Origin: an uncultured candidatus Porisulfidus sp. | GTDB taxonomy: Bacteria > Pseudomonadota > Gammaproteobacteria > Poriferisulfidales > Poriferisulfidaceae | Assembly (NCBI GenBank): GCA_965116025.1 | Contig: OZ220480.1 | Coordinates: 640,001-704,000 of the forward strand | DNA length: 64,000 bases | Direction: 5' to 3' | Notes under the pieces: generated by a model | What the model was told of the DNA's origin: nothing | Database searches by the model: none | What the model saw: the letters and a program-made list of their open reading frames with translations, nothing else | Program-made: the position numbers and the translations under genes | Shown: piece by piece, positions 6,822 to 38,903 of the stretch | Position numbering within the stretch: position 1 is the stretch's first letter | Layout of the letters: each line of letters starts with the position of its first letter

Positions 6822-6828
6822 CGGACCG

Positions 6829-7695: not shown

Positions 7696-9108
<1,413 letters not shown>

Positions 9109-22536: not shown

Positions 22537-23231
22537 GGCTCCTCCGCGTCGACGTACAGAGGGTGGAGCGCGACTACTGTTCGGCCCGGATCTTTCCCGC
22601 GCCCGATCTCGGGAGCCCACCCGGCCGGGAGCTCCCGCAGTTCCGACTCGATATCCTCGCCCTTCGGAAACAAGAAGATTCCGTCCGGGGCGACCAGATG
22701 AGCGGCGCCGCGGACCATCTCCGAAAGCGAGCCCACGGCGCGCGCCATAACGCAATCGAACGGGTCGGCCTCGTAGCGCTCCGCCTCTTCCGTGACGACC
22801 TCGACGTTGGACAGATCCAGCTCCAGTTTCGCCTGGCGGACGAAGCGGGTCTTCTTGCGGCTACGGTCGAGCAGCGTGAACCACCGATCCGGATGGGCCA
22901 CGGCCAGCGGCAAGCCCGGCAGGCCCGCCCCCGTGCCGAGATCCAGAATACGGTGAGCGTGGGATGGAAGCGACCGGGAGAGCGAGAGCGCGTCCAGGAT
23001 ATGCCGCGGGACGATTTCCGGCAAGGTTCGGGCTCCCACCAGGCCACAGGATCGGTTCCATCGCTCGACCAGCGCGCAATAGGTCAGCAGGGTCTCGATT
23101 TGGGAGGAAGACAGGTCCAGACCGGAAATCTTCCGGATGCCCTCTCGCAACTGAAGCTCCAGCGCGTCCTTCGCCGGCAGGCGAGGAGCTTCGGAAGATC
23201 CACGGAAAGGAGGGGCCCGGCCCGCCTTCAT
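22533..23231 (-). CDS. rsmG: 16S rRNA m7G527 methyltransferase
   Basis: 'RHILDAL', 'LDLGTGAGLPGLPLA' and 'MARAV'; follows mnmG. Confidence 0.94.
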   Translation of the reverse strand: MKAGRAPPFRGSSEAPRLPAKDALELQLREGIRKISGLDLSSSQIETLLTYCALVERWNRSCGLVGARTLPEIVPRHILDALSLSRSLPSHAHRILDLGTGAGLPGLPLAVAHPDRWFTLLDRSRKKTRFVRQAKLELDLSNVEVVTEEAERYEADPFDCVMARAVGSLSEMVRGAAHLVAPDGIFLFPKGEDIESELRELPAGWAPEIGRGKDPGRTVVALHPLYVDAEEP

Positions 23232-25066
23232 GCGCGAGAACCCCGCCGCCGAGCGTCATCGGCCTTCAGGTGAACCTTCAGGATGGCGACAGCGGCGGGC
23301 GTCACCCCGGGAACGCGGGCGGCCTGCCCCAGCGTCGCGGGGCGGCAGTGGCTGAGCTTTTCCCGCGCCTCATGCGACAGAGCAGAGATTGAGCGGTAAT
23401 CGATCCCCTCAGGCAAACGGCGGACCTCGTCGCGCTTCAGCTTCTCGATTTCTTGCTTGTGACGGCGAATATAGCCCTCGTAGCGCAACTCGATCTCGGC
23501 CTGACGGCCGATGTCGGGCCGGGCCGGCTCATAGTCCGGAGCGCCCGAGACGGCATCGGCGTAAGCGGTATCGGGACGACGCAGAACGTCGGCCAAGCTA
23601 CCTTCGCCCAGCCGGGTGGACCGTAAGCGTCGCAGTTCCGCCTCGACCGCGTCGCGCCGTTCGCGAAAAAGCTCCCATTGCGCGTCTCCGACCAGGCCCA
23701 GCTCGCGCCCAATCTCGGTCAGACGCAAATCGGCGTTGTCCTCCCGCAAGCTCAGCCGATATTCGGCGCGACTGGTGAACATGCGGTAGGGCTCGTCCAC
23801 TCCCCGGGTGGTCAGGTCGTCGACCAAAACGCCGATGTACGCCTGATCCCGGCGGGGCCACCAAACGTCCCGGCCCAGGCTTTGGGCCGCGGCGTTGAAG
23901 CCCGCGAGCAGCCCTTGCGCGGCCGCCTCCTCGTAGCCGGTCGTGCCGTTGATCTGCCCGGCCAGGTACAGTCCGGGAAGCGCCTCGCAGCATAGCGTCG
24001 GACGCAGTTGCCGAGGGTCGAAGAAGTCGTATTCGATGGCGTAGCCATGGCGCGTCAGCCGCGCCTCCTCGAACCCCGGAATCGTCCGGACGAACCGCTC
24101 CTGCGCCTCGGCCGGCAGACTGGTGGAGATTCCGTTGGGATAGACCACGTGGGTGCCCAGCCCTTCGGGCTCGATGAACACCTGGTGCGACGGACGGTCG
24201 GCGAAGCGAACCACTTTGTCCTCGACCGAAGGGCAATAGCGCGGCCCGCGACTGTCGATAGCACCGGTTCGCATTGGCGACTGGTGCAAATGCGCGCGGA
24301 TCACGTCGTGGGTGGCCTCCGTCGTGCGCGTCAGATGGCAATCCACTTGCCGCGGACGCGCGTCCAGAGAGCTGAGCCGGGACAACGGCGGCGGAGGGAT
24401 CTCCCCGGGCTGGGGGGTGGTCTTGGACCAATCGACGCTCCGGCCATCCAATCGGGGAGGGGTTCCGGTCTTGAGGCGCCCGACGTTCGGCAGCAACTCG
24501 CGCAACCGCCGCGCCAAAAGCAGGGAAGCGGGATCTCCGGCGCGTCCGCCCCGGGTCTGGTCAGCGCCGACATGAATGGCGCCGTCCAGAAACGTGCCGG
24601 TCGCCAGCACCACCGCGGACGCCTCGATACGGTCGCCTTCCTCGGTGAGGACGCCGCGCGCCCTGCCACCACGCTCAATCAGGTCGCCGACGGCGACGGC
24701 CCGGACCTCCAGATTTCGCTCCTCAGCGACGGCTCGCTGGATCGCTTCGCGATACAGCTCGCGGTCGGTCTGGACGCGGGTGGCCCGCACGGCGGGGCCC
24801 TTGCTGCGATTGAGCACCCGGACGTGGATGCCAGCGCGGTCCGCGGCACGCGCCATGACCCCTCCGAGCGCATCGATCTCGCGCGCCAGATGACTTTTCC
24901 CGATCCCCCCGATCGCCGGGTTGCAGCTCATCTGGCCGATCGAGTCGACGCGGTGGGTCAGAAGCAAGGTTCGCGCGCCCACGCGCGCGGCCGCCAAAGC
25001 CGCCTCCACGCCGGCGTGTCCGCCACCGATGACCAGAACGTCCCAAACGCGCGTCGCGTCCTTCAT
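23228..25066 (-). CDS. mnmG: tRNA uridine 5-carboxymethylaminomethyl modification enzyme
   Basis: 'GGGHAGVEAA', 'MSCNPAIGG', 'GPRYCPSVEDK' and 'AGQINGTTGYEEAAAQG'. Confidence 0.97.
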   Translation of the reverse strand: MKDATRVWDVLVIGGGHAGVEAALAAARVGARTLLLTHRVDSIGQMSCNPAIGGIGKSHLAREIDALGGVMARAADRAGIHVRVLNRSKGPAVRATRVQTDRELYREAIQRAVAEERNLEVRAVAVGDLIERGGRARGVLTEEGDRIEASAVVLATGTFLDGAIHVGADQTRGGRAGDPASLLLARRLRELLPNVGRLKTGTPPRLDGRSVDWSKTTPQPGEIPPPPLSRLSSLDARPRQVDCHLTRTTEATHDVIRAHLHQSPMRTGAIDSRGPRYCPSVEDKVVRFADRPSHQVFIEPEGLGTHVVYPNGISTSLPAEAQERFVRTIPGFEEARLTRHGYAIEYDFFDPRQLRPTLCCEALPGLYLAGQINGTTGYEEAAAQGLLAGFNAAAQSLGRDVWWPRRDQAYIGVLVDDLTTRGVDEPYRMFTSRAEYRLSLREDNADLRLTEIGRELGLVGDAQWELFRERRDAVEAELRRLRSTRLGEGSLADVLRRPDTAYADAVSGAPDYEPARPDIGRQAEIELRYEGYIRRHKQEIEKLKRDEVRRLPEGIDYRSISALSHEAREKLSHCRPATLGQAARVPGVTPAAVAILKVHLKADDARRRGSRA

Positions 25067-25108
25067 AGCGGGGTTAATATACTTGAATCGGACCATCCGT
25101 TTACGGGA

Positions 25109-25167: not shown

Positions 25168-25659
25168 ATGCGTGGAGAGCGACGTAAACTGCTATTAATG
25201 CTAAAGAAGGCGGGAAGGTCCGTACCGATATCCGAGATTCGGGAAGGGTTTGAGGTCGACGACCGAACCCTGCGGCGCTGGCTGCTCGCCCTGCGCGACG
25301 AGGGGCGAGTCGAGGCCATCGGCGACAACAAGGGAAGACGCTACCGCCTCGCGCCATCGCGGGAGACCGGCCCGGGAATCGAGGATGGAACGCTTGAGGA
25401 GCTGCAACGGGAACTACTGCGCGAGGCGATCCGCGACGCGGCGAGCGGGCGGACGCTGACCGTCCTGCTCGCGGAGCGCGTCCGGGAGCTCCTGCCGGCC
25501 CCGGCCCGCGCGGGCTTCATAAAAACCACCTTGTCTCGCCTGCGCGCCATGACGACCGAGGAAGCGGAAGCGCTCGAGATTCCTCCGATGATGTTTCAAT
25601 ATTGGCGACGCGCGCAAACTTCGGCCCAATGCCAGGAAAACCAAACCCCGCCACCATGA
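25168..25659 (+). CDS. Winged-HTH protein resembling the N- and C-termini of HTH-Fic proteins, without a Fic domain
   Basis: wHTH 'ISEIREGFEVDDRTLRRWLLALRDEGRVEAIGDNKGRRYRL'; helical C-terminus; no HPFxxGNGR motif. Confidence 0.65.
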   Translation: MRGERRKLLLMLKKAGRSVPISEIREGFEVDDRTLRRWLLALRDEGRVEAIGDNKGRRYRLAPSRETGPGIEDGTLEELQRELLREAIRDAASGRTLTVLLAERVRELLPAPARAGFIKTTLSRLRAMTTEEAEALEIPPMMFQYWRRAQTSAQCQENQTPPP

Positions 25660-26387
25660 CCCTTCGCTTTCTCTCCATCGAGCATATCCCGCAAGAAGGA
25701 GTCGGCGCGATCTCCTCGTATATCCGGGAGCGCGGCGGCCACCTCGCCCGGCATAGACAATACCAGGGAGAGCCCCTATCCGCTTCCCACGACGACTACG
25801 ACGCGCTGGTGGTCATGGGAGGGCCGATGGGCGCGAGCGATGGAGATCGATACGCCTGGCTCGACCAAGAGACGCGCTTCATACGAGAGGCGATCGATCA
25901 GGGCAAGCGGGTTCTCGGCGTTTGCCTGGGCGCGCAACTGATCGCCAAGGCCCTGGGCGCGGAAGTGCGGAAGAACCATTGCGCGGAGATCGGATGGTTT
26001 CCGGTCCGGTTCGAGGACTCGTTTCGGAACGCTCCACCAGGGCGAGGACTCGACCGCGAGCTGGAGGTCCTCCACTGGCACGGCGACACGTTCGAGACAC
26101 CGTCGGGCGCGACTCGCGTCGCGAGCAGCGAAGCGTGCGCGAATCAAGGATTTCTGTTCGAGGGAAGGGCACTGGGGCTTCAGTTTCATCTGGAGATGGG
26201 AATGGAAGAAGCGCGCGTGATGACGGAAACCTTCCGGGACGAGTTGAAGCCCAGAAGGTTCGTGCAGGGCGAGGAGGAGATCAAGGCGCGAGCGGAGCGG
26301 AACGCCGCAACAGTGCGAAAAGCGCTGTTCTCTATGTTGGATGGCTTGCTGGAGCGCTTAGCGCCAAGGGAGGCGACCGAGGTCTGA
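25656..26387 (+). CDS. Class I glutamine amidotransferase (GMP-synthase-like, stand-alone)
   Basis: 'VMGGPMG', 'GVCLGAQL', 'HWHGDTF' and 'LGLQFHLE' (Cys-His-Glu triad); ATGA overlap with the upstream gene. Confidence 0.9.
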   Translation: MTLRFLSIEHIPQEGVGAISSYIRERGGHLARHRQYQGEPLSASHDDYDALVVMGGPMGASDGDRYAWLDQETRFIREAIDQGKRVLGVCLGAQLIAKALGAEVRKNHCAEIGWFPVRFEDSFRNAPPGRGLDRELEVLHWHGDTFETPSGATRVASSEACANQGFLFEGRALGLQFHLEMGMEEARVMTETFRDELKPRRFVQGEEEIKARAERNAATVRKALFSMLDGLLERLAPREATEV

Positions 26388-26479
26388 CCCGCATCGCCGA
26401 TGCTGGCGACATGGCAAAGTCGACGGCTCTTTGCGCTGTGTTAAACTTCACGCTCACCCCCATCAGATATCAACATCTA

Positions 26480-28373
26480 GTGCCCCCCCCCCCCCCCCCC
26501 CCTACAGCTCGTCTTCCCTATCGCCAGCACCAAGGTTGGCAAGCCATACGCGATAGCTGAGCATTGCGTCGTCGGCCCCGACATAGCGTGTCGAGAACTG
26601 ATCCAAAACGCGCTTGACGCGCACGCCTCTTTGCGAGACGGGCAGCCTTGCAAAGTTCTTTTCAAGATCTCCAAGATCAAGACCGAGGAGATTCCCGGAT
26701 ACGCCTGTTACCGGGCGGCCCTGAAAGACGCGCTCAAGTCGTGGAGCCAGAATGAATCCGTATCCACGTATCTCAAATCCATACAGAGAAACCTGAGCCA
26801 GCCAGAACTCGAGGTCCTTTATGTCATTGACAACGGCAAAGGCTTCAGCGAGAGAGGACTGGAGGCCGTCATGGCCGAAGGTTCTCCCGACAAGCAGGAG
26901 GGCTCTACCGGATCATTCGGAGTGGGACACCTCACGAGTTACGGCTTGTCAGGGATTCAGTACATTTGCTACGCGAGCAAGCAACGGGACGGGACGCTGT
27001 TGGCCACCGGTCACGCCATTCTGTCATCGCACGATTCCAATGGCGAGTTGCGCTCGAACAACGGATACTACGTCCAAGAATATCATCCAAGGTTCACCGA
27101 GCCCTTCGATTTTGGGGCGACCGATCAAATTCCCGATTTCCTGCGACGCGAACTGGATCGAATAACGTCTCCCTCCGGGTCCATCATCGCGATATTGGGA
27201 TTCAATCGATTCTCCCAAGGCTCCCGAAAGAGATCTCGCGGGCAAAAAGAACTACATGAACTGATCCGCGAAGCGGTCGCCGAGAATTTCGCTATCGCCA
27301 TTTGGGCGAACCATCTTGAAGTCGACGTTCTCGATACGACGCAGAATGATCTCGAATCGATACTGCACCATACGGTGGACAAGAACGGTATAGAAGAATT
27401 CCTTAAGCACATGGCTCGCCCGGACACCGGGACCAAGGTGCAGACGCTCAAGGCGCAACAAACGCTGGATTCCATCCAAACGTACCGGGAATCCTCAAAG
27501 TCAGGCAATCTCTCCGGCGATTTCAAGGATTGCCAAATCTCTTTGCGCAACCGGGCTCGCGCCCATAGCGTGTCGATCTGGCGCAACGGCATGCTCATCA
27601 CGCGCAAGCATCGGGGACTGGCCAAAAATCAGTTCGATAACAAGAAGCCTTTTGACGCTGTCGTCATGCTGAGCGGCAAGGAGCGTCCCCACGACGCGCA
27701 CGACATCGTGAAAAAAGCGGAAACGCCTATGCACGACAGAATTCAGGAGAACAGGCTTGAGAACGAAACCGAGCGGAAAACGCTGAAACGATGGTTGGAA
27801 GAAATTCGATCATGGATTTCCGAACATGCCGAAGAATCGGGAGGCGAGTCAGCGGATCTGGAAGACGAGATCGTCCTAGATGGAGGCAATACCATGAAAG
27901 AAAAAGCATCAAGGTCCTTGAAAATCATTCCGGGCTCGGGGAATGGCGAAGACGAGCCTATCGATCCCAAAACGCCCAAGACAACACCGCCGTATCCCCC
28001 ACGTCCGGGCCCACGCCGCGTCCGGCGAAAACTCTCTCCAGCGAAAGCCCAAGGGAGGCCGCTCGCGAACGACCGCTACCGAATCCGAATAAAGCCAGAG
28101 GCCCGCGTCGACAGAGGCTTCGTCAAAATCATCATTGACAGCGGGCAAGACCCCAGTTGCAGGGGGGCGATCCAAGACACGCCTCTAGTCATTCGGTCAG
28201 CAAAAAGTCCAGATGGACGAGCATACCGCGTGGGTAGCGGTGGATTGGTTCAGTTGGGCAATCTGCAAGAAGGCGAAACGGTAGTCGTCGATTTGGCTTT
28301 CCGGGATCCGCCCGGGGACTTCAACCAAATCTCTCTAGGCTGTCTGCTCGGAACTACGGAGGAGAAAGAGTGA
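26480..28373 (+). CDS. GHKL (MORC/Hsp90-like) ATPase-domain protein; 5' end frameshifted at the poly-C tract as sequenced
   Basis: The frame of track ORF 26631..28373 stays open upstream to a TAG at 26478 and reads 'LQLVFPIASTKVGKPYAIAEHCVVGPDIACRELIQNALDA' (motif I). Also 'YVIDNGKGFS' (motif II), 'GSFGVG' (motif III), a Pro-rich linker and a beta-rich tail. Confidence 0.8.
26483..26502 (+). repeat. Poly-C homopolymer (C20)
   Basis: 20 consecutive C directly after GTG at 26480-26482. Confidence 0.95.
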
Positions 28374-29221
28374 GCACGTTATTTCCCCACCCTGTTCTGC
28401 ATCAGGATACGCTCGACTATAGCGACCCGAAGGCGTACCAAGCGACCTTCAAAAGAATGGGAAAAACCACGCTGGTAGTGGAGCACACCTTGCGGCGAGA
28501 CACATTGATCGCTTCGTTGATTGAGCAAGAAAAGGCTTCTTTCTACTGCACGGTATCCATCGGGGGAACAGCTTTTCGCAAAACCGAGCCGGCTCCCGCG
28601 AGCATCCGTGATGGGAGCATCACCGCCCATCAAGAAATCGAACACCCCGCCTTCGTCAATCGGTACGACGTATTCGCGTCCGCTGGCGTCCTGAACCACG
28701 AAGCGAAGAGAATGCCATGGGAAAAGGCCACGGGCATTGATGCTTTTTATAAAGACGAAACGTCGGATTTAGAGTTTTCCGCAGGGGCCATGCTCGCTTG
28801 CAGCGGCTGGCGACATTTTTATCCGATGGACGCCTTGTTTCGAATCAAGTCCAATTCCGACCTTAATACGGGAGTATTCCAAGCCGAACCAAGCTATCAG
28901 CCCACCATCCGAATCACCATCCAAATGAACAACAAACTGTACGATGAAGTGGAAGGCAACTCCCAAGGAACAGTTCGGTCGCATGTCCTATGCGCGTCCC
29001 TAATTCCCGTGCTGAAAGAACTTGAAGAGAAATACAAACGCTGCAGCGAGAAAAGCGACACGGAAAGCCTAGACACTGATAGAGCGGACTTAGAGGCGGC
29101 GGAAGGGTTGAAACGATTTCTCATCTCGAAAGAAATTCCGACTTGGGAGGATGAAGCGTTCAACGCGGTTGAAGCGGCATCGAAGTTCAAGCCAGCCATG
29201 CTGGACGACCGCGAGGAATAA
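28370..29221 (+). CDS. Hypothetical protein with N-terminal 'FPHPVL' motif (cassette gene 2)
   Basis: 283-aa ORF; GTGA overlap with the GHKL gene and GGAG RBS upstream. Confidence 0.75.
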   Translation: MSTLFPHPVLHQDTLDYSDPKAYQATFKRMGKTTLVVEHTLRRDTLIASLIEQEKASFYCTVSIGGTAFRKTEPAPASIRDGSITAHQEIEHPAFVNRYDVFASAGVLNHEAKRMPWEKATGIDAFYKDETSDLEFSAGAMLACSGWRHFYPMDALFRIKSNSDLNTGVFQAEPSYQPTIRITIQMNNKLYDEVEGNSQGTVRSHVLCASLIPVLKELEEKYKRCSEKSDTESLDTDRADLEAAEGLKRFLISKEIPTWEDEAFNAVEAASKFKPAMLDDREE

Positions 29222-29224
29222 CGG

Positions 29225-30136
29225 ATGACGATTTATCGCCACTTGAGCGACGAGCGCCTGTACCGGTGGGCCAAATCCATGATCGCCAAAAAAGGAAGCG
29301 AGAAACAACGCGAGTTTCTTGCGCATGTCGCTGACGACAGCCCCGATGAATTCGTTGATTATGTGGAAAGCTGTATAGGAAACCGAGCCTCAGCCTATAA
29401 AAACCCCGACGGAGAAACTCCCACCCTGCTCGATCAATCGGGACAACCCGTCGTGTCAATGACTGCCGGCCACATGTATCTCATGCCAGCAAAGGACATC
29501 CAGAGACTGCACGACCACTGGCGAGACATCCCGTATGGAGACGCGGTTTGTCCAACCTTATGGGGCGCGATCACTCTGTCCGAGATTCGAGCGGGCCGAA
29601 TTCATCCTGTCTGGCTCGCCGTGGATCGTAAAGGATGCGAAGACGCGACGCGCAAAGAGATCGAAAGATCTCTGCGAGAAAAACAGGACATGAAAATCGA
29701 TACGCTGGTGCGACGGTGCATGCGGTGGATGACAGCACCAGGAACCATGCGCGGCGCGCCCGAGTTATACGGCAACTGCTCTCTCGCGAAAGCTTGGTGG
29801 TGCGGACATTTCTCGCGTTTGGTCCACGACCAGACTAAAGCCGACCTTGACGAGATCGTTAAATCCCTGCAGAAATCCTGGCTTGGACTGACCGACTATC
29901 TCGCGGGGAAACTGACCGTGATCGGCGAGCCCAGCGTTATCGCGGGATTCACCCTGTGGGCCCGCAAGCGACTCGATCAAGAAAAGCAATTGCCGCGAAA
30001 ACATGTCGAGCGGACCTGCCAGACATTAGGAGAGATCTCTTCCTGGTGCGTGCTCGGCTGGATGTCTGCCGAGGAAATCGAGAGAAAGATTTTCGGCTTC
30101 AAACCAGTAACGAGCTTTCAAGAAGACGTGCACTAA
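29225..30136 (+). CDS. Hypothetical protein, possibly DUF6339-like (cassette gene 3)
   Basis: 303-aa ORF starting 3 nt after gene 2. 'AVCPTLWGAIT' and 'NCSLAKAWWCG' recall the DUF6339 'xxxRLW' and 'RNxxSRLWW' motifs (from memory). Confidence 0.65.
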   Translation: MTIYRHLSDERLYRWAKSMIAKKGSEKQREFLAHVADDSPDEFVDYVESCIGNRASAYKNPDGETPTLLDQSGQPVVSMTAGHMYLMPAKDIQRLHDHWRDIPYGDAVCPTLWGAITLSEIRAGRIHPVWLAVDRKGCEDATRKEIERSLREKQDMKIDTLVRRCMRWMTAPGTMRGAPELYGNCSLAKAWWCGHFSRLVHDQTKADLDEIVKSLQKSWLGLTDYLAGKLTVIGEPSVIAGFTLWARKRLDQEKQLPRKHVERTCQTLGEISSWCVLGWMSAEEIERKIFGFKPVTSFQEDVH

Positions 30137-30142
30137 CGCATC

Positions 30143-31534
30143 ATGAGCGCCTCCCGCAGTGGAGCTGTTGATGTTCCGAGACTATCCGCGCATCTTTGGA
30201 GAGGAGGGCTCCCACGTCGCGGAATCCTCCATTATGAATCCGCGAAGCATCGCGATGCTCCACATGTAGTCAAGTTCTCTGGAGGCCGGTCCAGCGGCCT
30301 GATGTTGCTTATCCTCCTAGAAAACGGTTTGCTGAAAGCGGAGCGGGGAGACGTGGTCCTGTTCACGAACACATCCGCCGAGCATCCGGCCACTTATGAC
30401 TTCGTCAAAAAGATGAAGCGCGTCACCGAGCGTATGGGAATTCCTTTCTTTCTCGCCCAGCTACAGACTTTCGAGACCGTCGCGAAAGGCGAATGGCGCC
30501 GCCGGCTAAGCTACCGCCTGACGACCGATAGCCCGGCATCCGCCAAAGATCCTTTGGGCTATGAATATCGCGGAGAGGTTTTCGAGGAGGCAATAGCCTG
30601 GAACGGTATGCTTCCCTCAGTGCATACCCGCGTCTGCACAACGCTGATGAAAATGTTCGTGACTCGGGAGTTTTTGTCAGACTGGTTCGGTAGCGCGGAC
30701 GGAATCCCGATGCGCGGCCATACCGGCGACACTTCCCAAGTAATGCCCAGCATTCTGTACCAGGAACACTTGGTGAATCGAGGAAAAATGTCTTTCATGG
30801 AGTACCGAAAACGCCATGATCTTTTGAAATCCCGACCCACATTCAGGCCCGAGCAAAAGTATGCGGATTACACGAAGGCGACCATCCAAGGCCATGAAAA
30901 TCCAAGACTCAGGGAAAGCGTGCTAGGAAACAAGTGCGAACTATTCGGCGAGCATTCCGCCAAATTTCTGACCTTCTTGGGATTTCGGTTTGGGGAGTAC
31001 GCACGCTACCAGCGAATGACACAACGAAACAAGGGGGAGGAAACCCCCGGACATGACACCCACCCAACGGGCGAGTTTTCTTATTCCCCCCTCTTCGACC
31101 TCGGCATCGATCAAGCCAAAGTGCTACGGTTTTGGAAAAAACAACCGGCGCGCCTGCGCCCCCTCCTTCCGACAGATATTAATCTTTCCAATTGCGTGTA
31201 TTGCTTTCTGAAAGGTCCTCGGGCCCTAGGCGAAATTCAAAACACTAAGAGAGACTTCGAAAAAACGTTGCCTCCTTCCGTGCAAGCCGAGTGCAGGAAA
31301 ACCAAAACGCCCAATTCTATTAACTGGTGGATCCACCTGGAGGATTCGAGAAAGCGAACAGCGAACAAGAAAAACTCGGATGGCAGCAACAACCAAACGT
31401 TCGGCATGTTCGGGCTGAAAGACTTGGACTACCGGGCAATTAAAGAGCGAGCGTTAGTAGAAAAGCGAAAAGACAAGCGGGCTTTCACGGAGACATTGCC
31501 CGCCTCCACCTTGAATTGCGAATGCACCGACTAA
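30143..31534 (+). CDS. PAPS-reductase/PP-loop family protein with Cys clusters (DndC/SspD analogue)
   Basis: PP-loop 'VVKFSGGRSSGLM', 'FTNTSAEHPATYDFV', 'RVCTTLMK', 'GFRFGEYAR', 'SNCVYCFLKG' and C-terminal 'CECTD'. Confidence 0.85.
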   Translation: MSASRSGAVDVPRLSAHLWRGGLPRRGILHYESAKHRDAPHVVKFSGGRSSGLMLLILLENGLLKAERGDVVLFTNTSAEHPATYDFVKKMKRVTERMGIPFFLAQLQTFETVAKGEWRRRLSYRLTTDSPASAKDPLGYEYRGEVFEEAIAWNGMLPSVHTRVCTTLMKMFVTREFLSDWFGSADGIPMRGHTGDTSQVMPSILYQEHLVNRGKMSFMEYRKRHDLLKSRPTFRPEQKYADYTKATIQGHENPRLRESVLGNKCELFGEHSAKFLTFLGFRFGEYARYQRMTQRNKGEETPGHDTHPTGEFSYSPLFDLGIDQAKVLRFWKKQPARLRPLLPTDINLSNCVYCFLKGPRALGEIQNTKRDFEKTLPPSVQAECRKTKTPNSINWWIHLEDSRKRTANKKNSDGSNNQTFGMFGLKDLDYRAIKERALVEKRKDKRAFTETLPASTLNCECTD

Positions 31535-32670
31535 AGCCCGTTTATTTCGATTACGCGGCCACCACTCCTGTCGATGAGCGCGTTGTGGAAGCGATGACTC
31601 CCTATTGGAAATTGGGCGGAACCTTCGGTAACCCCTCGAGCATTCACCATCCCTATGGGACCGAAGCGGCGAACGCAGTCGAAATGGCGAGGAAAAGAGT
31701 AGCCCGCTTGATTGGAGCGGAAGCCCGCGAGATCATCTGGACATCTGGAGCCACAGAAGCGAACAATCTCGCTATGCGAGGGTGTCTTCAAGCTGGAACA
31801 AAATCTCCGCGCCAGTTGATTACCGTCGCCACCGAACACAGCTCGGTTCTAGACACGGCGATAGCGCTTCGCAAAGAAGGAATGGATGTCAAAGTGTTAC
31901 CAGTTGATCGGAACGGGCTTGTTGGACTGGAAGAGCTCGAGCGGGTGATCAGTGAAGGTGACGCTTTGGTTTCAATCATGTGGGTCAACAACGAAACCGG
32001 GATCATTCAGCCTGTGGAAGAGATTTCTAGTCTATGCAGAAAGGAAGGCGCGATCCTCCATATCGATGCGGCTCAGGCGATAGGGAAGACCCCTGTTAAT
32101 GTCCAGAAAGTCGCAGCTGATTTGGTCTCGCTGTCCGCCCACAAAGTTTACGGCCCCAAAGGAATTGGCGCGTTGTTCGCACGTAAGGGAATCAAAATCA
32201 ATCCGATCATGCACGGTGGCGGACAGGAAAAGGGGATACGCCCCGGAACTTCTCCTGTCCCCATGATCGCGGGCATGGGCATGGCTTTCGACATTCTCCG
32301 TCGGGAAGCGAGCTCGTTCAACAAGCAAGCGGCGAATTGGCACGCGAGGTTGACATCCACCATCGAAGGACTGGGCGGAAGCCAAATCAATGGAGGAAAA
32401 GCGAAAAAAGTCCCTCACATCATCAACGCCAGTTTCAAGAATCTGGATGAAACGCTAATCCCATATATGAGGAAAGTCGCCATTTCGGCCGGCTCCGCCT
32501 GCGCGACAAAGAGAACCACCGCATCCCATGTCCTGCGAGGCATGGGCGTGAGCCGCCGCATGGCGCTTACTTCTCTGCGGATTTCGATAGGAAGATTCAC
32601 CACCGATTCGGATATAGAGATTCTTGAGCAGGACTTAATTGACGCCTTGTCCAAGCTGAGGGCTGGATAA
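31522..32670 (+). CDS. Cysteine desulfurase (IscS/DndA/SspA-like)
   Basis: 'YFDYAATTP', 'FGNPSS', 'TSGATEANN', PLP lysine in 'SAHKVYGPKGIGAL' and catalytic Cys in 'SAGSACAT'; overlaps the upstream gene by 13 nt. Confidence 0.93.
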   Translation: MHRLKPVYFDYAATTPVDERVVEAMTPYWKLGGTFGNPSSIHHPYGTEAANAVEMARKRVARLIGAEAREIIWTSGATEANNLAMRGCLQAGTKSPRQLITVATEHSSVLDTAIALRKEGMDVKVLPVDRNGLVGLEELERVISEGDALVSIMWVNNETGIIQPVEEISSLCRKEGAILHIDAAQAIGKTPVNVQKVAADLVSLSAHKVYGPKGIGALFARKGIKINPIMHGGGQEKGIRPGTSPVPMIAGMGMAFDILRREASSFNKQAANWHARLTSTIEGLGGSQINGGKAKKVPHIINASFKNLDETLIPYMRKVAISAGSACATKRTTASHVLRGMGVSRRMALTSLRISIGRFTTDSDIEILEQDLIDALSKLRAG

Positions 32671-32686
32671 AGATGGAGGAAGAACA

Positions 32687-34504
32687 ATGGGAAAAATGAC
32701 CGAGTATGAATCTAGGACGATCTATGAGTGGCTGATGAAAATTCATCAGGGAAAAATAGCCTTGCCCAGCTTTCAGAGAGATTATGTATGGAAGCCAGCA
32801 CAAGTCAGCGAACTGCTGAAAGCCCTATTGAAAGACCGCCCCGTTGGGGCCTTCTTGACGATGAGCTTTACGAATGCGAGACCAACTCCAGCATTTAAAC
32901 CCAGATCTTTTTTTGATGTGGGCGATGAGAATCAGACTTTCGAAGGCTGTGAGGAACTGGTTTTGGACGGCCAACAGCGATTAACGTCGCTCTGGCGAGC
33001 GCTTAAAGCGGAAAGCGCTCGGCAACAATATTTTGTGAAGGTTGAGAATTGGGATTCCGATGAACTTGAAGTAGCGCGAATGGACGATCCTGTGCGACTG
33101 GAAAGAGATAAGTCGAAAGTCGTTAAAGATCACGCTCACGCGAAAGAACTGAAGCTTATTCCGATTCGCATTCTGGGAATCGATGGCGTTACTCAAGAAG
33201 ATGACGCTTTGTACAAATGGTGCGCCAGCGTATACAGCGATGACGAAGAGGGTCGAGAGCACGCCAGACAGCTGACTCGAAAAATCGATACGAGCTTCGC
33301 GCAGAAACTTCATCATCGGGGGTTGTGGTTTATACAATTGCCCGAAGGCCTGCCGCGAGAGGACGCGATAGAGATTTACATCAAGACAAACCAATCCTCA
33401 TCCATTGTAAAACCATTCGATATCGCGGTAGCCGAATACGACCGCCAGAAAGAGGACTCTTTGCGGAATGAAATTCTTGGGTGGGTCGAACAAACGCCCG
33501 AAGCCAAGCGACTATTCAATTCAGATCCTGAAAAAGTGGTCCCCGATGTGGGTGAATTGATTCTGAAAATCGCATGTCTGCAAAAGAAAAAAGTCCCGAC
33601 TGAGAAAAGCTACATGTCTTCCGCAGTTATTGAATATTTGCAACGGGAAAACGCCGGTCTCAAAAAAATACTGGATGGACTGGATTGGGCTTTCCGGTTG
33701 CTTGAGGAAATTAACATTTTCTATCGGACATATCTCCCCAGCACTGTTCCTCTGCAAGTCGTTCCAGCACTGCATCCCGAATTCGAAAAAATCAAAGACC
33801 CGGACCGTAGAGGTTTAGCGAGAAATTTCTTGTTCGCATATATTTGGCGATCATTCTTGGGGGACCGCTACACTCGGGAAGTGAATACCAAGCTGAAAGA
33901 AGATTATGGTGGTTTGGTCGAGTTGTTGTCACATATTTCAGAACATGGGCAGGATGGTGTTCAGAACAAAACATCAGGCGTTCCCGTGTTTTTAGAAGAG
34001 GTGACATTTCCCGATTTGAGAGTTTTGTCCCGCGTCAAAGATCCTATCAAGTCACCGACTACGAAGAACATGATCGCCAGATCTCTCCTGATCGTCAGCA
34101 CGCAGGGAGGAGCGCGCGATTTCGCTAGTGGTGAGGCGATCACCAAATTGGATATCGAGAAAAGAGAGCGACACCACATCTTTCCCCGCAACTTCCTGCA
34201 AAAGAACGGTATTGAAAATCCACTGAGGAATCATGCCTTGAATTTCTGCCTTATCACGGGCCCCGCCAACAAAAAGTTTTCTAATAAAACACCTCTTAAA
34301 CAAATAACGGAGCGCTTTCTTGAAAACAGGCACTTGACCGAAGCGGCGCTGAAGCAAAGAATCGCTTCGCACTTAATTCCCTATGAGGCCATTAAAGATG
34401 TTGGTGAAAAAAACGTAAAGGCGACATATCGCTATTTCATTAAGGAGAGAGCAAAAATGTTCATCGAAAAAATACAAGTATTGACCAAGGTGCCTTTTCA
34501 ATGA
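32687..34504 (+). CDS. DUF262 + DUF1524/HNH-like protein (GmrSD/SspE-like)
   Basis: 'LPSFQRDYVW', 'LVLDGQQRLTSL' and C-terminal 'HHIFP...NHALNFCLITGPANKKFSNKTP'; GGAGG RBS. Confidence 0.88.
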   Translation: MGKMTEYESRTIYEWLMKIHQGKIALPSFQRDYVWKPAQVSELLKALLKDRPVGAFLTMSFTNARPTPAFKPRSFFDVGDENQTFEGCEELVLDGQQRLTSLWRALKAESARQQYFVKVENWDSDELEVARMDDPVRLERDKSKVVKDHAHAKELKLIPIRILGIDGVTQEDDALYKWCASVYSDDEEGREHARQLTRKIDTSFAQKLHHRGLWFIQLPEGLPREDAIEIYIKTNQSSSIVKPFDIAVAEYDRQKEDSLRNEILGWVEQTPEAKRLFNSDPEKVVPDVGELILKIACLQKKKVPTEKSYMSSAVIEYLQRENAGLKKILDGLDWAFRLLEEINIFYRTYLPSTVPLQVVPALHPEFEKIKDPDRRGLARNFLFAYIWRSFLGDRYTREVNTKLKEDYGGLVELLSHISEHGQDGVQNKTSGVPVFLEEVTFPDLRVLSRVKDPIKSPTTKNMIARSLLIVSTQGGARDFASGEAITKLDIEKRERHHIFPRNFLQKNGIENPLRNHALNFCLITGPANKKFSNKTPLKQITERFLENRHLTEAALKQRIASHLIPYEAIKDVGEKNVKATYRYFIKERAKMFIEKIQVLTKVPFQ

Positions 34505-34578
34505 TTCCAGCACACCCAATTTCACTTTCCGCCGATGTCCGCTTGAATATGCGACAATGCCCATAGAGAGCGGAAGGC

Positions 34579-35556
34579 ATGCCTTTGAACGTAGAGAAGT
34601 ACGCGAAAAAGTTCCGGGCATTGCGCGTGCACAAACAAGGAGAGACGATCTCTCCGCACAAACCCTGCATGTTGCTGGCGGTAGTCGATGTTGCGGAAAG
34701 AGGCGACCTGGCTAAGAACGAAATCCGTGTCCATGACGCTCCCGCCTTGGCGGACATGACGTTGATAGACAGCTTCCGCAGGTACATGAAGGCGGCGAAG
34801 CCTGAGAGCCCGGCAAAGATAGCGAACCCCCTGCTCAGGCTGAAATCAGAAGGCTTCTGGCATCTATCGCCAAGGCACGGGGGCGCTACCGGTTTTGACA
34901 AGCTTCCTCGAAACGGCGGGGATGACTATAGGTATCTTCGTGACAACGTCGAGTTCATCCATCTCGACCGCGACCTCCACGAACTGCTTATGGACGAAGG
35001 CACCCGGTCAACAATCCGGGAATGCCTGATAGATCACTGGTTCCCTGAGTGCCGAGAGGAAATGTATGCCGCGGTCGTCGCGGGACGGGAACAATTCGAG
35101 TACGAGCAACAACTAGAAGACCCTTCCTCGCCCCTAACCCAAGAGCCACAAAAAGAAATCCGAAAACCTGTTTTCCGGCGCAGGGTGCTCCACGCTTATG
35201 GCTATAGTTGCGCCGCGACTGGCCTCCGCTTCTTGGAACTGGATGTCTTTCCCAGCCTTCTGGATGCCGCGCATATCCGACCATTCGCTGATTCCCATGA
35301 TGATCGAACGGTAAATGGGATAGCCCTTCAACCAACGTATCACCGAGCGATGGATCAGTTTTTGATCGCCCCCGGCCCGGACCTGAAATGGCACGTGTCC
35401 AATTCACTTGATGACCGCATCAATGGCCATCAGGAGCTAAAGAAGATAGATGGGGAAAGCCTCATAGCCCCGGTAGAGAAAAGAGACCTCCCGGACAAAC
35501 ATGCTCTGCAGTGGCGTCTTGAGCGATTGCACGAGATGGATCGACAGCGCAGATAA
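34579..35556 (+). CDS. HNH endonuclease with N-terminal sulfur-binding-domain (SBD)-like region
   Basis: 'SPHKPCMLLAV' and 'NPLLRLKSEGFWHL' (SBD-like); 'FRRRVLHAYGYSCAATG' and 'DAAHIRPF...NGIALQPTYHRAMD' (HNH). Confidence 0.85.
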   Translation: MPLNVEKYAKKFRALRVHKQGETISPHKPCMLLAVVDVAERGDLAKNEIRVHDAPALADMTLIDSFRRYMKAAKPESPAKIANPLLRLKSEGFWHLSPRHGGATGFDKLPRNGGDDYRYLRDNVEFIHLDRDLHELLMDEGTRSTIRECLIDHWFPECREEMYAAVVAGREQFEYEQQLEDPSSPLTQEPQKEIRKPVFRRRVLHAYGYSCAATGLRFLELDVFPSLLDAAHIRPFADSHDDRTVNGIALQPTYHRAMDQFLIAPGPDLKWHVSNSLDDRINGHQELKKIDGESLIAPVEKRDLPDKHALQWRLERLHEMDRQRR

Positions 35557-35904: not shown

Positions 35905-36894
35905 TCAGAATTTACCGTCACGCACCGTGTTTCCTCCTCGGAACGTCTTGATGATCCTGGGCTGAACCGGATCGTTATCGGGCAGCGGTCCTTTGCCTTT
36001 CTGAATCATTTTCGCGCCCACGCTGGTCAGCTCGCTGAGAGTGGCGGTGCCGGCCAGGGTCTTCTTGTCTGAGTAGAAATCAAACCAAGGAAATCCAGCA
36101 TCGGTATAGTCTTTGGCGGACGGAGGCTTGTGCGGTGGCTGATGTTCTGTGATCTCCTGATACAGGGCACTGTTGGCCAGATGCACAAAGCAACGAAAAC
36201 CGTTCTGTTGATCCCAGGCTTCCATGCCGTATTCATCCTCGTAGATTTCCTGCCGCATCAGGCCGCCGGGGGCAAGACCCATGTCAAGGTCTGGTACTGC
36301 GCACCCATCATCTGCCACACTGCACATGGCGACATGCTGTTTTTTAAAGTGCTCAACGTGCTTGGCATAGAAATCGCGCTTCATCGGGTAGGCGATGATC
36401 TGAAGGCCCCCATGCTCGGCCTCACCGGTGATCTGCTCTTCCGCCGTGAAACCTTCGCCCAGGGGCATGGCCACGAATTGGCGAATGTGCCCCCCGGAGA
36501 CGTTGAAGCCATCCAGCCACGGCTGTTCCGGGATGACCACGTAGTCTTGCGGGTCAGCCGACAGGCCGTTGGTCCATTCCTTGCCGGATATGGCATCAAT
36601 TTTGCCGGCAGCGATCTTGATGGCGCAGGGATAGTCGCCTGAAAAACTGATCCATAGGGCTTCGGATTGATACATCGGGATGAATACTCCACCATGACGG
36701 CGCCAGGCTTCGGGCAGCTTCTCCGCAAAGTCGTCTACATGCTCTATCGGGAAACGTCCCAGCCCGGGGGGAAGGGAATATTCCCGGTTGTCGTCCGGAA
36801 TCCGCAGGGTGCGTTGAAAATCAATGTCGCAAACCGCTTCCTCGTGGACTTCCGGAAACCGGAAGGTGAGTTGGTTGTCCAGTAGTTCAATCAT
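35905..36894 (-). CDS. Conserved hypothetical protein ('FQRTLRIPDD..Y.LPPGLG.FP' family)
   Basis: 329-aa ORF with AGGAG RBS; motifs 'PMYQSEALWISF', 'QPWLDG', 'RQFVAMPLG.G.T.E.QITG' and 'MGLAPGG...QEIY.D'. Confidence 0.8.
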   Translation of the reverse strand: MIELLDNQLTFRFPEVHEEAVCDIDFQRTLRIPDDNREYSLPPGLGRFPIEHVDDFAEKLPEAWRRHGGVFIPMYQSEALWISFSGDYPCAIKIAAGKIDAISGKEWTNGLSADPQDYVVIPEQPWLDGFNVSGGHIRQFVAMPLGEGFTAEEQITGEAEHGGLQIIAYPMKRDFYAKHVEHFKKQHVAMCSVADDGCAVPDLDMGLAPGGLMRQEIYEDEYGMEAWDQQNGFRCFVHLANSALYQEITEHQPPHKPPSAKDYTDAGFPWFDFYSDKKTLAGTATLSELTSVGAKMIQKGKGPLPDNDPVQPRIIKTFRGGNTVRDGKF

Positions 36895-36911: not shown

Positions 36912-37262
36912 TTACCAGTCTCCGTCACGTACATCCCGGGCAATACGCAGGATTGCCTGATCCGGCATGGACTTGAGTTCTCGGATCAGATCCGCGAACA
37001 GCTGGGGCCGTTTGCGGATGATCTCCAGCAGGTCCGAAGACACTTTACCTGCCATGGCCAGAAGAATATCGGGGTCTTCGCCCAACTCTTCCGCCAGTCC
37101 TCGAATTTTCGCTTCTGAAGGTGGCGCCACATCCCCACGCTCAATCTTGCTCAGGTAAGCCGGTTCCACCCCGATTCGTCGGGCCACCTGACGGACCGAG
37201 AAGCGCCGGTCCTCCGCCTTCAACGCTTCGCGCCGCCCGCGAATGTGATTTCCGAATGTCAT
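36912..37262 (-). CDS. XRE-family HTH transcriptional regulator
   Basis: 'SVRQVARRIGVEPAYLSKIERG..APPSE'. Confidence 0.9.
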   Translation of the reverse strand: MTFGNHIRGRREALKAEDRRFSVRQVARRIGVEPAYLSKIERGDVAPPSEAKIRGLAEELGEDPDILLAMAGKVSSDLLEIIRKRPQLFADLIRELKSMPDQAILRIARDVRDGDW

Positions 37263-37304: not shown

Positions 37305-38270
37305 CAGTCGTGAACTATTCGCCCCCGGTCATGCGGAGCGGAAGAAAAATCGCCTCAAGAAGACGAGGATTTCCGGAGTTTTCTCCAAGTGCGGGAAAAC
37401 CCAGCCAGAAGCTTGGCGAAGTTGTGCCCGGCCGCCGCCAGAACCGCGTTGGCGCGATCGCCGGAGCGTCCTTTCAGCCGATTTCGATGCGTCCGATGAT
37501 CCGACTTCAGATGGCCGATGGTCGGCTCGAGCGCCACGCGCTTCATCTGCCCGCGCGCCCGTACCGCCCGCATAGGATCAGCGCCTTCTTCCCGACGCGC
37601 TGGTAGCTCTGCCGCAGAGCCACGCCGCGCTTCCGCGCCTCTCGAACCAGCGCCACCCGCACCTTGTGATACAGCCGCGCGTCGGTCGGGAACGCCACCG
37701 CCTTCTCCCGCGCCGTCGTGTCCACGTTCACCCGCTCCAGCTCACGCGAGCCCAGGAACCCCTCCCGCCGCGCCACCCGGATCGTCCGCGTCAGCAAGCA
37801 GTCTAGGCGATCCCCCACCCGTTCCCGCCAGCGCGTCATGCCGCTTGAATGCAGCGGAGCCTGGATCTGCATGCGCTCATAACCGCAGAACGCCTGCCAG
37901 TAGGGGTTCTCCCGCCAGATCCGAACCACCCGCTCGTCGCTCATGTCATGCGCGTACTTCAGAAAATGAAGACCTGCCATCAGCCGGGCCGGCAAGGGCG
38001 GCTGCCCCGGCCCGGAAGCATGCGGGCCGCCGAGCTCCTCCTCCATCTCCTCCCAGTCGATCTTCTCGCCCAGCAACAGCAGGGAATTCTTCGGATCCAG
38101 CATATGAGACAGGCGGGCGCGGACCAGGTCGGCGTGAGTATCGGGCTTTTTCGGTTTCATGTTTCGCAAGGAATCGGTGCTCAAGCGTGGGAAAGCTTGC
38201 GAAACGGCATAGCCAAAAACGGATTCTATGTCAGCGATTCAAGCAGTTACGAATACTTCATCAACGGCTG
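37305..38270 (-). mobile_element. IS5-family element remnant (frameshifted, internally deleted transposase)
   Basis: 'LLLLGEKIDW', 'PPLPARLMAGLHFLKYAHDMSDE', 'WRENPYWQAFCG' and 'VDTT.REKAVAFPTDARL', then a frameshift into 'QMKRVALEPTIGHLKSDHR...AVLAAAGHNF'. Ends are estimated from degenerate IRs. Confidence 0.85.
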
Positions 38271-38322
38271 AATAACGTCTCCATATTCGCTTGGGTTTTC
38301 ACCCGGAGCGCGCGATAGATTG

Positions 38323-38350: not shown

Positions 38351-38381
38351 CAGTGGGGTTAGGTTTTCTGGTTCGCTCAGA

Positions 38382-38903
38382 TCACTCCGACGTCAGCATC
38401 TCGCCGACCTTGCCGGAGATCATTCCGAAAACGGCGCCGACGACTATGGAAATCGCGACGACGATCAAGGCGTTGGAGGCGCTGGCGGAGCCCAGGGCCT
38501 CCATGGAGAACGCCCCCTCGGTCTGCAGCGCGTAGCCCGCGACGCTCGCGTAGCCGAGCACGCTCGCTGGAATCGAGGAGAAGTATTCCACATGGGCCAG
38601 CAGGCACATGACCAGAACGGTCACGGCCACGACGAGGCCCGCCCAGATCGGGACTCCGAGCATGTCGCCCAGCGGGACCGCCAGAATCACGAGCAACGCC
38701 ACCCAGGCGATCACCGCGCCGAGGATGCCGCAGACGATCGTGTTCTGCAACGCCTTTTGGTCTCCCCCGATGGCGAAGTAGCAGGCCCAGGCGATGAACG
38801 CCACCCAGATGAAGACGATTCCCGACAGCGGGCCCAAGCTGAGAGCCGTGGCGACGCCACCCAAAACGCCTATGCTGATTGATAATGCGATGAGACTTGA
38901 CAT
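38382..38903 (-). CDS. DUF1097 family membrane protein
   Basis: Hydrophobic; 'WVAFIAWACYFAIGG' and 'IPASVLGYA'; AGGAGGT RBS upstream. Confidence 0.8.
   Translation of the reverse strand: MSSLIALSISIGVLGGVATALSLGPLSGIVFIWVAFIAWACYFAIGGDQKALQNTIVCGILGAVIAWVALLVILAVPLGDMLGVPIWAGLVVAVTVLVMCLLAHVEYFSSIPASVLGYASVAGYALQTEGAFSMEALGSASASNALIVVAISIVVGAVFGMISGKVGEMLTSE

Follow-up and report, generated by a model that had tools for sequence, protein, structure and literature searches.

The 64,000-nucleotide window analysed here (C1:640001-704000 of the genome of an uncultured candidatus Porisulfidus sp., called G000 below, a single contig of 2,018,984 bp that is estimated to be 99.4% complete) carries seven co-oriented open reading frames (ORFs), g1 to g7, on the plus strand between 26.4 and 35.6 kb. 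With moderate confidence we propose, from their sequences and those of their relatives, that the first five are the core of a GHKL-dependent, phase-variable DNA sulfur-marking defence system, and that its mark would probably be phosphorothioate (PT). The core joins a GHKL ATPase (g1) and two uncharacterised proteins (g2 and g3) to a predicted sulfur writer of the PP-loop ATP-pyrophosphatase type (g4) and a cysteine desulfurase (g5). Behind it stand g6, a DUF262 protein with a DUF1524-like nuclease domain, and g7, an endonuclease with a sulfur-binding domain (SBD) and an HNH domain. An original prediction, made from the letters of the window, had united all seven genes in a distinct writer-reader sulfur system. 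A distinct and recurrent sulfur-type cassette is indeed what we find, but the assignment of g7 as its reader is not borne out.

A conserved five-gene core in many bacterial lineages

A scan with g4 gave 203 relatives, with one genome per species, and the best 80 of these served as the loci for all gene counts. Each cassette gene was counted by two methods, tblastn at E<=1e-5 and iterated profile hidden Markov models (HMMs) on the ORF sets; because several loci are cut by contig ends, the counts are lower bounds. By tblastn and HMM respectively, at least 77 and 76 of the 80 loci carry g1, 17 and 73 carry g2, 66 and 69 carry g3, and 69 and 61 carry g5, while g6 is present in 29 by either method and g7 in 4 and 5. 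The identity of g4 to that of the window ranges from 36 to 65% across the same loci.

In the relatives the cassette genes stand side by side in one orientation; g7 and the genes around the cassette vary from locus to locus. The commonest order is g4-g5-g1-g2-g3, which stands alone in 23 loci, is followed by g6 in nine, and has g6 inserted after g5 in five. The order of the window, g1-g2-g3-g4-g5-g6, occurs also in L001, L025 and L074, and two circular permutations are found overall. In this search for co-occurrence of gene order the set thus recurs in most of 80 independent loci, far beyond chance. The seven genes had been predicted to form one unit; g1 to g5 hold as its core, but g6 is an optional accessory within the operon (29/80) and g7 an occasional neighbour (4-5/80).

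The hosts, named from record titles that carry no isolation source and checked for two lineages, include Gamma- and Alphaproteobacteria, Binatia, Rhodothermales, Longimicrobiales, Dehalococcoidia and several orders of Acidobacteriota, as well as Latescibacterota, Limisphaerales, Spirochaetia and Entotheonella. Some of the names, namely Porisulfidus, Poriferihabitaceae (genus Spongiihabitans), Porifericomitales, Entotheonella and AqS3, we take to be those of sponge symbionts. When the window's phylum was sampled evenly, 2 of 401 genomes proved to have the g4 family, the window's own and one that has two copies (G063); PDC-M33A, the PADLOC model to which g1 belongs, was found in 8 of the 401, and canonical DndC in 13 of 201. 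A tRNA-Val gene (L001:6157-6233) lies 80 nt upstream of the cassette in L001, and the insertion site differs from that in the window. The counts in the phylum sample and this tRNA-Val site together indicate that the cassette is rare, patchy and mobile.

A predicted sulfur writer and its desulfurase

The domain calls made earlier for g1, g4, g5, g6 and g7 were all found again by profile searches, for g4 through remote matches. Pfam's PAPS_reduct model matches g4 on the PP-loop at 0.0028, which is below its cut-off. Of the PADLOC models, SspD matches at 1.8e-06 with a best stretch of just residues 152-184 (33 residues), and BrxP at 5.1e-06 over residues 32-108 only (about 75); the NCBIfam matches are of the PRK13795 type, and no DndC model matched at E<=0.01. 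Aligned by hhalign, g4 meets the genome's own DndC (one sequence) at E 0.002 and a set of nine DndC sequences from the phylum sample at E 2.7e-04 (probability 41%, 134 columns), with SGGRSS paired to SGGKDS and R-x-C-T-x-x-M-K to R-W-C-T-x-R-M-K. Compared with DndC, g4 has a large insertion and a differing C-terminal half.

Four elements are invariant in 21 g4 homologues: the KFSGGRSSG loop, R163-x-C165-T166...K170, S-N-C351-x-x-C354-F-x-K-G, and a C-terminal C459-x-C461-T-D tail. The motifs SGGxxS and C-T-x-x-K place g4 in the PAPS-reductase-like PP-loop superfamily, a placement known from sequence, with no fold predicted. Because the profile matches are remote, and because of the insertion and the different C-terminal half, we regard g4 as a distinct family inside this superfamily, a new one by its predicted relationships, akin to DndC, SspD and BrxP. 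The family is large: 1073 of the 6643 candidates scored are homologues at E<=0.001, and a precomputed Pfam domain is present in one of 120 homologues among the matches listed. On plasmids g4 had zero matches by tblastn, and sequence searches of the PDB with g4 (single sequence and profile), g2 and g3 (profiles) and g1 returned chance-level matches only.

Two natural fusions bear on the substrate of g4. In P0124 (823 aa) and P0125 (864 aa), which were found by a search limited to longer proteins, an N-terminal C5 DNA methyltransferase (3.9e-70 and 3.9e-79, respectively) is joined to a full-length g4 homologue at the C terminus. Both are 35% identical to g4 over 92-94% of its length and keep all of its motifs, including the CxCTD tail. 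With an identity of only 44% between the two proteins, the fusion can be taken as established, not as an artefact. The fact that a C5 DNA methyltransferase is fused to a full-length g4 homologue in two proteins suggests that g4 acts on DNA, which would most likely be its substrate. A metagenome scan with P0125 gave 80 loci, all matched through the methyltransferase half only, none of which had a homologue of g1 to g7.

The desulfurase is easier to recognise. g5 matches Aminotran_5 at 1.5e-79 and, among the PADLOC models, both SspA (5.2e-139, over the full length of the model) and DndA (4.8e-137), so that it qualifies as a desulfurase of either type. Its scores lie below the equivalog cut-offs of the IscS, NifS and DndA models (for TIGR03235, 376 bits against a cut-off of 480), and for this reason we call it IscS/DndA-like and not an equivalog of any of them. 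A second, IscS-like desulfurase is encoded at 1914268-1915728 of the genome. In view of this separate copy at 1.914 Mb we rejected g5 as the housekeeping IscS, and g5 is predicted to be a dedicated sulfur donor that the cell has in addition to it.

The genome also has a canonical dndC (367 bits against a cut-off of 290) at C1:968 kb, about 300 kb from the cassette. In this locus (L084, C1:958000-977999) dndC is followed by a DndD/PbeC-like ABC ATPase and a DndE-HerA/DUF87 fusion, and the dnd genes adjoin an N4/N6 methyltransferase and BglII-like endonuclease pair. Dependence of the cassette on the genome's dndCDE was considered and rejected: canonical DndC is present in just 3 of 10 other cassette-bearing genomes tested and missing from the remaining 7, and the cassette is therefore independent of dndCDE.

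The triad g1-g2-g3 as a module with varying partners

The first gene is a GHKL ATPase by its N-box, G1 (DxGxG) and G2 (GxxGxG) motifs, read in the frame-0 translation. It matches HATPase_c_3 at 2e-05 (25 bits, exactly at the cut-off of 25), a sacsin-type ATP-binding domain at 4.4e-08 and PADLOC's PDC-M33A at 5.5e-39; matches to TmtA are weak, and its C-terminal ~380 aa have zero Pfam matches. The N-terminal 70 residues of g2 match PDC-M33B (1.3e-08), and g3 matches PDC-M33C (1.3e-04) and DUF6339 (7.2e-05, 23.1 bits, just under the cut-off of 23.2). Being contiguous and matching models A, B and C in order, the three genes belong to PDC-M33. The original prediction had set two unknowns beside the GHKL ATPase; uncharacterised they are, but absent from databases they are not, since g1 to g3 match this PADLOC candidate, PDC-M33ABC. 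According to the PADLOC authors, the PDC systems are 145 candidates obtained by 'guilt by embedding' in BREX, DISARM and type I restriction-modification (RM) loci.

AlphaFold (AF2) modelled g2 from an alignment of 33 natural homologues and g3 from one of 37. The model of g2 (pLDDT 90.1) has beta-sandwich regions followed by C-terminal helices, and that of g3 (pLDDT 90.2, pTM 0.88) is all-alpha; the g3 alignment has invariant Arg and Trp columns. Foldseek found no match to g2 in the PDB at E<=1e-3, and its best match to g3 there had an E of 1.5. The best VIA Z was 7.8 for g2 (FN3/Ig-like sandwiches) and 6.5 over 72 residues for g3, both at background level, which is why we say that no fold was recognised and do not claim a new one. 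In the ESM Atlas g2 resembles unnamed clusters (0.97) and g3 gave nothing usable; a search for longer proteins containing g3 gave a single protein of 576 aa. In L070 and L047 a single ORF, of 607 and 560 aa respectively, encodes both g2 and g3, and these natural fusions support a contact between g2 and g3.

The neighbourhoods of this triad suggest that it is not tied to sulfur. A second triad lies elsewhere in the same genome (L085, C1:303000-320999, positions 2302-8912 of that piece, minus strand) and consists of a GHKL gene (PDC-M33A, 4.8e-16), a gene for a 308-aa protein and a DUF6339 gene (5.4e-09). It is followed on the same strand by a C5 cytosine DNA methyltransferase (7.6e-36) and then a 458-aa protein. 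A C5 methyltransferase also adjoins the GHKL gene in L094 and L097, both from PDC-M33A-positive genomes of the phylum sample, and L096 has the order g4-g1-g2-g3. Plasmids add to this picture: the second GHKL protein matched seven records, and of the five inspected two haloarchaeal plasmids have dcm divergently adjoining a GHKL gene, a hypothetical gene and a 'DUF6339 family protein', in a third some 2.5 kb separate the triad from a methyltransferase, a Rhizobium plasmid has Z1 and the triad, and a Synechococcus plasmid a PD-(D/E)XK protein and the triad. Among the 80 g4 loci, none has a C5 methyltransferase, and N4/N6-type methyltransferase-like ORFs occur in five, all of them 1.4-8.9 kb outside the core.

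More distant GHKL relatives occur with Z1 and DUF4420 (PD-(D/E)XK) genes in L098, L099, L100 and L105, where they precede two small proteins of about 300 and 250-280 aa. The g1 HMM matches the GHKL proteins of these cassettes marginally (E 1e-3 or weaker) or not at all. The cassettes are presumably Mza-like. From the survey as a whole we conclude that the triad is a constant core whose partner varies, being a methyl writer, a sulfur writer or nuclease-type proteins. There are precedents for such an exchange: a PT apparatus replaces the methylation component in BREX type 4 as compared with type 1 (PMC12839542, PMC12914056), and DndDE cores can carry cytosine methylases in place of PT genes (the Dnd reappraisal of Rakesh et al. 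2024).

A homopolymer tract at the start of g1

The N-box of g1 lies upstream of the first in-frame start codon (26631), and so the frame in which the poly-C tract at the 5' end of the gene is read matters. The open frame reaches back to 26481, where it is preceded by a TAG. The two candidate starts 5' of the tract, ATG 26411 and GTG 26480, are out of frame with the rest of g1, and a tract of 19 or 22 C restores the frame. In L001, whose g4 is 65% identical to that of the window, g1 has an ATG five codons 5' of an in-frame C19 that is followed by a near-identical N-terminus; by this comparison, g1 of the window is one C away from the 'on' frame. Contigs of two short-read runs, the second of them from the same study and from a strain that is 90-95% identical, end exactly at the tract, and neither its length nor its heterogeneity can be read from them. 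In other words, the tract is real and recurrent, but the contigs do not resolve how long exactly it is here, nor therefore whether g1 is 'off'.

Relatives have comparable runs. G/C runs are found inside g1 also in L001, L008, L021, L038 and L074, and in the last of these a G13 stands exactly at the point where g1 splits into two ORFs. Other loci have G/C runs just 5' of g4 (L005, L018, L047, L062 and L066) or between g4 and g5 (L024). We regard the poly-C tract as a likely slipped-strand on/off switch of g1.

Such runs abound in this genome, which has 45 G/C runs of 15-39 nt and one T10; examples are C1:631630-631652, 738458-738480 and 1261154-1261172, and the g1 tract is the only one in the window. 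About 29 of the runs stand close to the 5' end (at roughly 0-210 nt) of an open frame of at least 1000 aa, with G on the coding strand. Many of these large frames are 1100-1250 aa long, and all three that were sampled end in an autotransporter beta-domain, so that the family looks like a big one of phase-variable surface proteins. One open frame, of 9644 aa (C1:108730-137661, minus strand), has a G29 run at 64 nt from the 5' end. The runs in defence genes are a G22 at the 5' end of dndC, a C20 inside a DUF262 frame, and the g1 tract. The DUF262 (GmrSD_N) frame, of 1016 aa (L103, C1:770748-773795, minus strand), may itself be a phase-variable defence gene.

The nuclease genes g6 and g7

g6 matches GmrSD_N (DUF262) at 1.8e-21, and its C-terminal part matches GmrSD_C (DUF1524) weakly, at 0.0033. 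The best PADLOC match is HEC-05 (4.7e-20), and a DUF262 protein of the PDB, 7p9k, matches at 8.3e-06. It had been likened to SspE, and the likeness we see is one of architecture only; the two SspE models that match (7.7e-05 and 1e-03) reach only the N-terminal ~40-100 residues.

Residues 6-150 of g7 match SBDHga (PDB 8h0l), the closest solved relative of its sulfur-binding domain, at 3.6e-10, with the H-K-P motif present; an HNH_2 match (9.9e-08) follows at the C terminus. With these two domains g7 is an SBD-HNH protein, and its match to NF045808 (3.7e-26), at 91.9 bits against a cut-off of 180, marks it as a divergent member. SBDHga is described as binding PT-DNA whatever the sequence. Characterised SBD-HNH enzymes cleave PT-DNA and lie beside dnd clusters in <3.6% of cases, and the study reporting this argued against co-occurrence with a writer of the same specificity. 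We rejected g7 as the dedicated reader of the system because it stands near the cassette in just 4-5 of 80 loci and because its characterised homologues attack PT-DNA; on both counts it is more likely a separate, type IV-like enzyme that acts independently. That it shares a genome with as many as two possible PT writers could reflect different sequence specificities, writers that are phase-variable, or a product other than PT. In L025 three tandem SBD-HNH paralogues (L025:14077-16746, minus strand) lie downstream of a full g1-g6 cassette.

A model of the system and its alternatives

We hypothesize that the core would work as follows. The desulfurase g5 would make a persulfide and supply the sulfur, and g4 would adenylate an oxygen of DNA and swap sulfur in, its conserved Cys residues likely binding an Fe-S cluster or relaying a persulfide. 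The product would most likely be phosphorothioate in the host DNA. In place of DndD/E, SspB/C or BrxC/PglZ, g1, g2 and g3 may form an ATP-driven DNA-handling complex that is coupled to the mark and that, as in BREX, would probably both direct the writer and interfere with unmarked invading DNA. Where present, g6 would be an optional nuclease arm comparable to SspE, with g7 an unrelated neighbour. The poly-C tract at the start of g1 would make the whole system phase-variable, and in this assembly it is off frame.

Several observations speak against this model. The link of g4 to known PT writers is remote, with a Pfam match under threshold and hhalign probabilities of 14-41% that cover the N-terminal half only. 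The desulfurase was undetected beside g4 in 11-19 of the 80 loci. Neither g2 nor g3 nor the last 380 aa of g1 showed a recognisable nuclease or other catalytic fold, and an interference role of the triad is therefore argued by analogy; PDC-M33 is itself a candidate defence system. That g1 is out of frame here may mean that the system is switched off or is decaying, or that the assembly gives a wrong tract length. An SBD-HNH gene begins 74 nt downstream of g6, and that its characterised homologues cut PT-DNA is awkward if the cassette writes PT. Finally, dndCDE is already present in the genome, so that PT, if detected in this organism, could come from either of two systems.

A core that only writes is an alternative that we consider possible, though on balance doubtful. 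Here g1 to g3 would be a scanning or targeting apparatus for g4 and g5, an analogue of DndD/DndE with no part in interference; restriction would come from add-ons such as g6, and many cassettes would then be 'orphan' epigenetic markers. That no nuclease fold was found in g1 to g3 and that g6 is present in just 29 of 80 loci speak for it, and the Dnd reappraisal sees DndDE as a scanning apparatus that recruits PT or cytosine-methylase modules and finds modification commonly decoupled from DndFGH. It sits less well with the proposal of the triad as a defence candidate, which was made from its embedding in BREX, DISARM or type I RM loci, or with the related GHKL triads that adjoin Z1 and DUF4420 PD-(D/E)XK proteins with no modification gene in view. 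Nor do C5 methyltransferases normally need a three-protein helper.

A mark other than PT is, in our estimation, improbable. g4 could thiolate a base, for example at the cytosine C2 carbonyl in the manner of TtcA, or make some other sulfur adduct in DNA, much as the PP-loop enzymes ThiI, MnmA, Ncs6 and TtcA thiolate bases of RNA (PMC12914056). The g4 family is separate from DndC, SspD and BrxP, has CxxC and CxC motifs, and has cytosine-C5 methyltransferases, enzymes that flip bases, as fusion partners; a product other than PT would also resolve the clash with the neighbouring gene for a PT-dependent SBD-HNH enzyme. On the other side, every profile match of g4 falls in the PAPS-reductase clade, to which the known PT writers belong. 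To our knowledge, and with no search aimed at it, an enzymatic thio-base in DNA has not been described. The most specific form of this idea is a fifth, GHKL-dependent system that makes a thiolated base such as 2-thiocytosine, read by the GHKL/DUF6339 triad and switched by the poly-C tract, and it strikes us as no less improbable. If true, it would be the first enzymatic thio-base mark in DNA, and it would explain how a PT-dependent SBD-HNH gene can stand beside the cassette without self-harm.

It is very unlikely that RNA or tRNA is the target of g4 and g5, or that they produce a small molecule with sulfur in it, the triad being linked to them through a non-DNA function. Most characterised pairs of a PP-loop enzyme and a desulfurase do thiolate tRNA (PMC12914056), and no DNA-binding domain was recognised in g4 by Pfam or profile searches. 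Yet g4 is fused to DNA methyltransferases, alternates with them beside the triad, shares an operon with a DUF262-DUF1524 nuclease, and has the island-like, patchy distribution described above (2/401 genomes in the phylum sample). The variation of g7 and the flanking genes between loci and the unrelated small genes of the island might point to a mosaic in which unrelated defence genes came together by chance, but for g1 to g5 this is almost certainly wrong, being contradicted by a contiguous, co-oriented core in most of 80 loci and in many phyla. Nor are these loci near-identical copies of a single mobile element, their g4 identities being just 36-65%.

Should the DNA sulfur-marking defence system that we favour be confirmed, it would be a further system of its kind, with more than 1000 writer homologues, and it would give a function to DUF6339 and to the PADLOC candidate PDC-M33. 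It would also mean that one triad module can be served by methyl or by sulfur marks, and the natural methyltransferase-sulfurtransferase fusion would be at hand for biochemistry. Lastly, it would be a case of homopolymer phase variation of an epigenetic defence in uncultured bacteria, several of which carry what we take to be sponge-symbiont names.

The locus and its setting

The features of the locus are collected in Table 1. Measured anew, the junctions between successive genes are, as predicted, a 4-nt overlap, a 3-nt gap, a 6-nt gap, a 13-nt overlap (counted from ATG 31522), a 16-nt gap and a 74-nt gap. The cassette lies in a low-GC island, also as predicted, with a GC content of 0.465-0.55 over 27-35 kb against 0.65-0.72 in the flanks and 0.627 in the whole genome. 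No tRNA gene was found in the window by a tRNA scan, and no integrase among the ORFs scanned. Promoter-like sites were no commoner in a scan than in shuffled sequence, and terminator-like sites were uninformative.

Table 1. Features of the cassette and its island (positions in the window)
Feature	Position	Strand	Remarks
mnmG/gidA	23231..25096	-	island border
class-I glutamine amidotransferase	25602..26387	+	island border, same side as mnmG/gidA
g1 start region candidate	26411..26482	+	ATG 26411 and GTG 26480, both in +1 frame relative to GHKL body
poly-C tract (20 C), 5' end of g1, Pro run	26483..26502	+	out of frame in assembly
g1 GHKL ATPase, about 630 aa	26481..28373 open frame; 26631..28373 as called	+	PDC-M33A
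g2, 283 aa, beta-sandwich	28370..29221	+	PDC-M33B
g3, 303 aa, all-alpha DUF6339 protein	29225..30136	+	PDC-M33C
g4, 463 aa, PP-loop ATP-pyrophosphatase	30143..31534	+	PAPS-reductase/DndC-like superfamily, predicted sulfur writer
g5 cysteine desulfurase, IscS/DndA/SspA-type	31516 (TTG) or 31522 (ATG)..32670	+	Aminotran_5
g6 DUF262 + DUF1524-like His-Me nuclease	32687..34504	+	putative accessory effector
g7 SBD-HNH endonuclease	34579..35556	+	sulfur-binding domain + HNH
329-aa ORF	35905..36894	-	inside island, no Pfam match
XRE-type helix-turn-helix gene	36912..37262	-	inside island
ORF	37518..38318	+	before yidC, no assignment
ORF	38377..38955	-	before yidC, no assignment
yidC	39765..41489	+	island border, other side

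Comparison with known sulfur systems

A January 2026 paper (PMC12914056) puts the number of PT systems at four (dnd, ssp, tdp and BREX type 4). To qualify as a new one in the screen that it describes, a locus needed a BLAST homologue of DndC or SspD and a P-loop NTPase; our cassette would escape such a screen because its writer lies below the PAPS_reduct threshold and its ATPase is of the GHKL class. We found no paper on this cassette, on DUF6339 or on PDC-M33, the supplementary tables of the PADLOC preprint and of PMC12914056 being outside the search. Likewise, no paper was found that joins HATPase, cysteine desulfurase and phosphorothioate, nor, among the papers listed, one that joins GHKL with phosphorothioation or PAPS reductase, and a search on sponges, phosphorothioate and defence listed nothing on this cassette. 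GHKL, HATPase, MutL, MORC and DUF6339 are unmentioned in the available part of Rakesh et al. 2024. An earlier description by others is possible.

Checked against Dnd, Ssp and BREX type 4, the cassette matches none in full, failing on the ATPase and the partner genes. The original prediction was also right on the genes that are missing: DndB, DndD, DndE, SspB and SspC have zero profile matches among the seven proteins, the usual ATPase and partner genes of Dnd and Ssp being replaced by a GHKL ATPase and two uncharacterised proteins, and no DNA methyltransferase was found in the cassette, among the seven genes or among the five island-flank ORFs scanned.

Dnd (DndABCDE with or without DndFGH/PbeABCD) shares with the cassette a desulfurase, a PP-loop enzyme of the PAPS-reductase superfamily, restriction genes that are optional and separable, and an island-like, patchy distribution. 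The cassette differs in having no match to a DndC model and no DndD ABC/SMC-like ATPase, DndE or DndB, where it has GHKL and two further proteins. Ssp (SspABCD-SspE) likewise combines a desulfurase, a PAPS-reductase-type ATP pyrophosphatase and an optional DUF262-DUF1524 effector, but the cassette has neither SspB (DUF4007) nor SspC, and the SspD model covers 33 residues of g4 and the SspE models only the N-terminus of g6. In BREX type 4 (BrxP, BrxC, PglZ, BrxL) an ATPase core that normally goes with a methyltransferase has taken up a sulfur writer (PMC12839542, PMC12914056), which is the same kind of exchange that we see around the triad; BrxC, PglZ and BrxL are absent from the cassette, however, its match to BrxP is weak, and its ATPase is GHKL and not P-loop. 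The TdpABC system of thermophiles is similar in being a compact writer around one PAPS-reductase-type enzyme, and tdpC alone is reported to make PT (PMC12914056); it differs in partner genes and host range, a distinction drawn here from the description in that paper and not from sequence.

Two further relatives share the triad and not the writer. The PDC-M33 models A, B and C match g1, g2 and g3, whereas none of them covers g4 or g5, and in the papers found PDC-M33 is nowhere linked to a sulfur writer. The GHKL/Z1/DUF4420 cassettes have a distant relative of g1 followed by two small proteins, and differ in their Z1 and DUF4420 genes and in having zero sulfur genes. Set beside all of these, the cassette looks like a DNA sulfur system of the PAPS-reductase type that has a candidate new writer family, an ATPase of a class new to such systems, and new partners.

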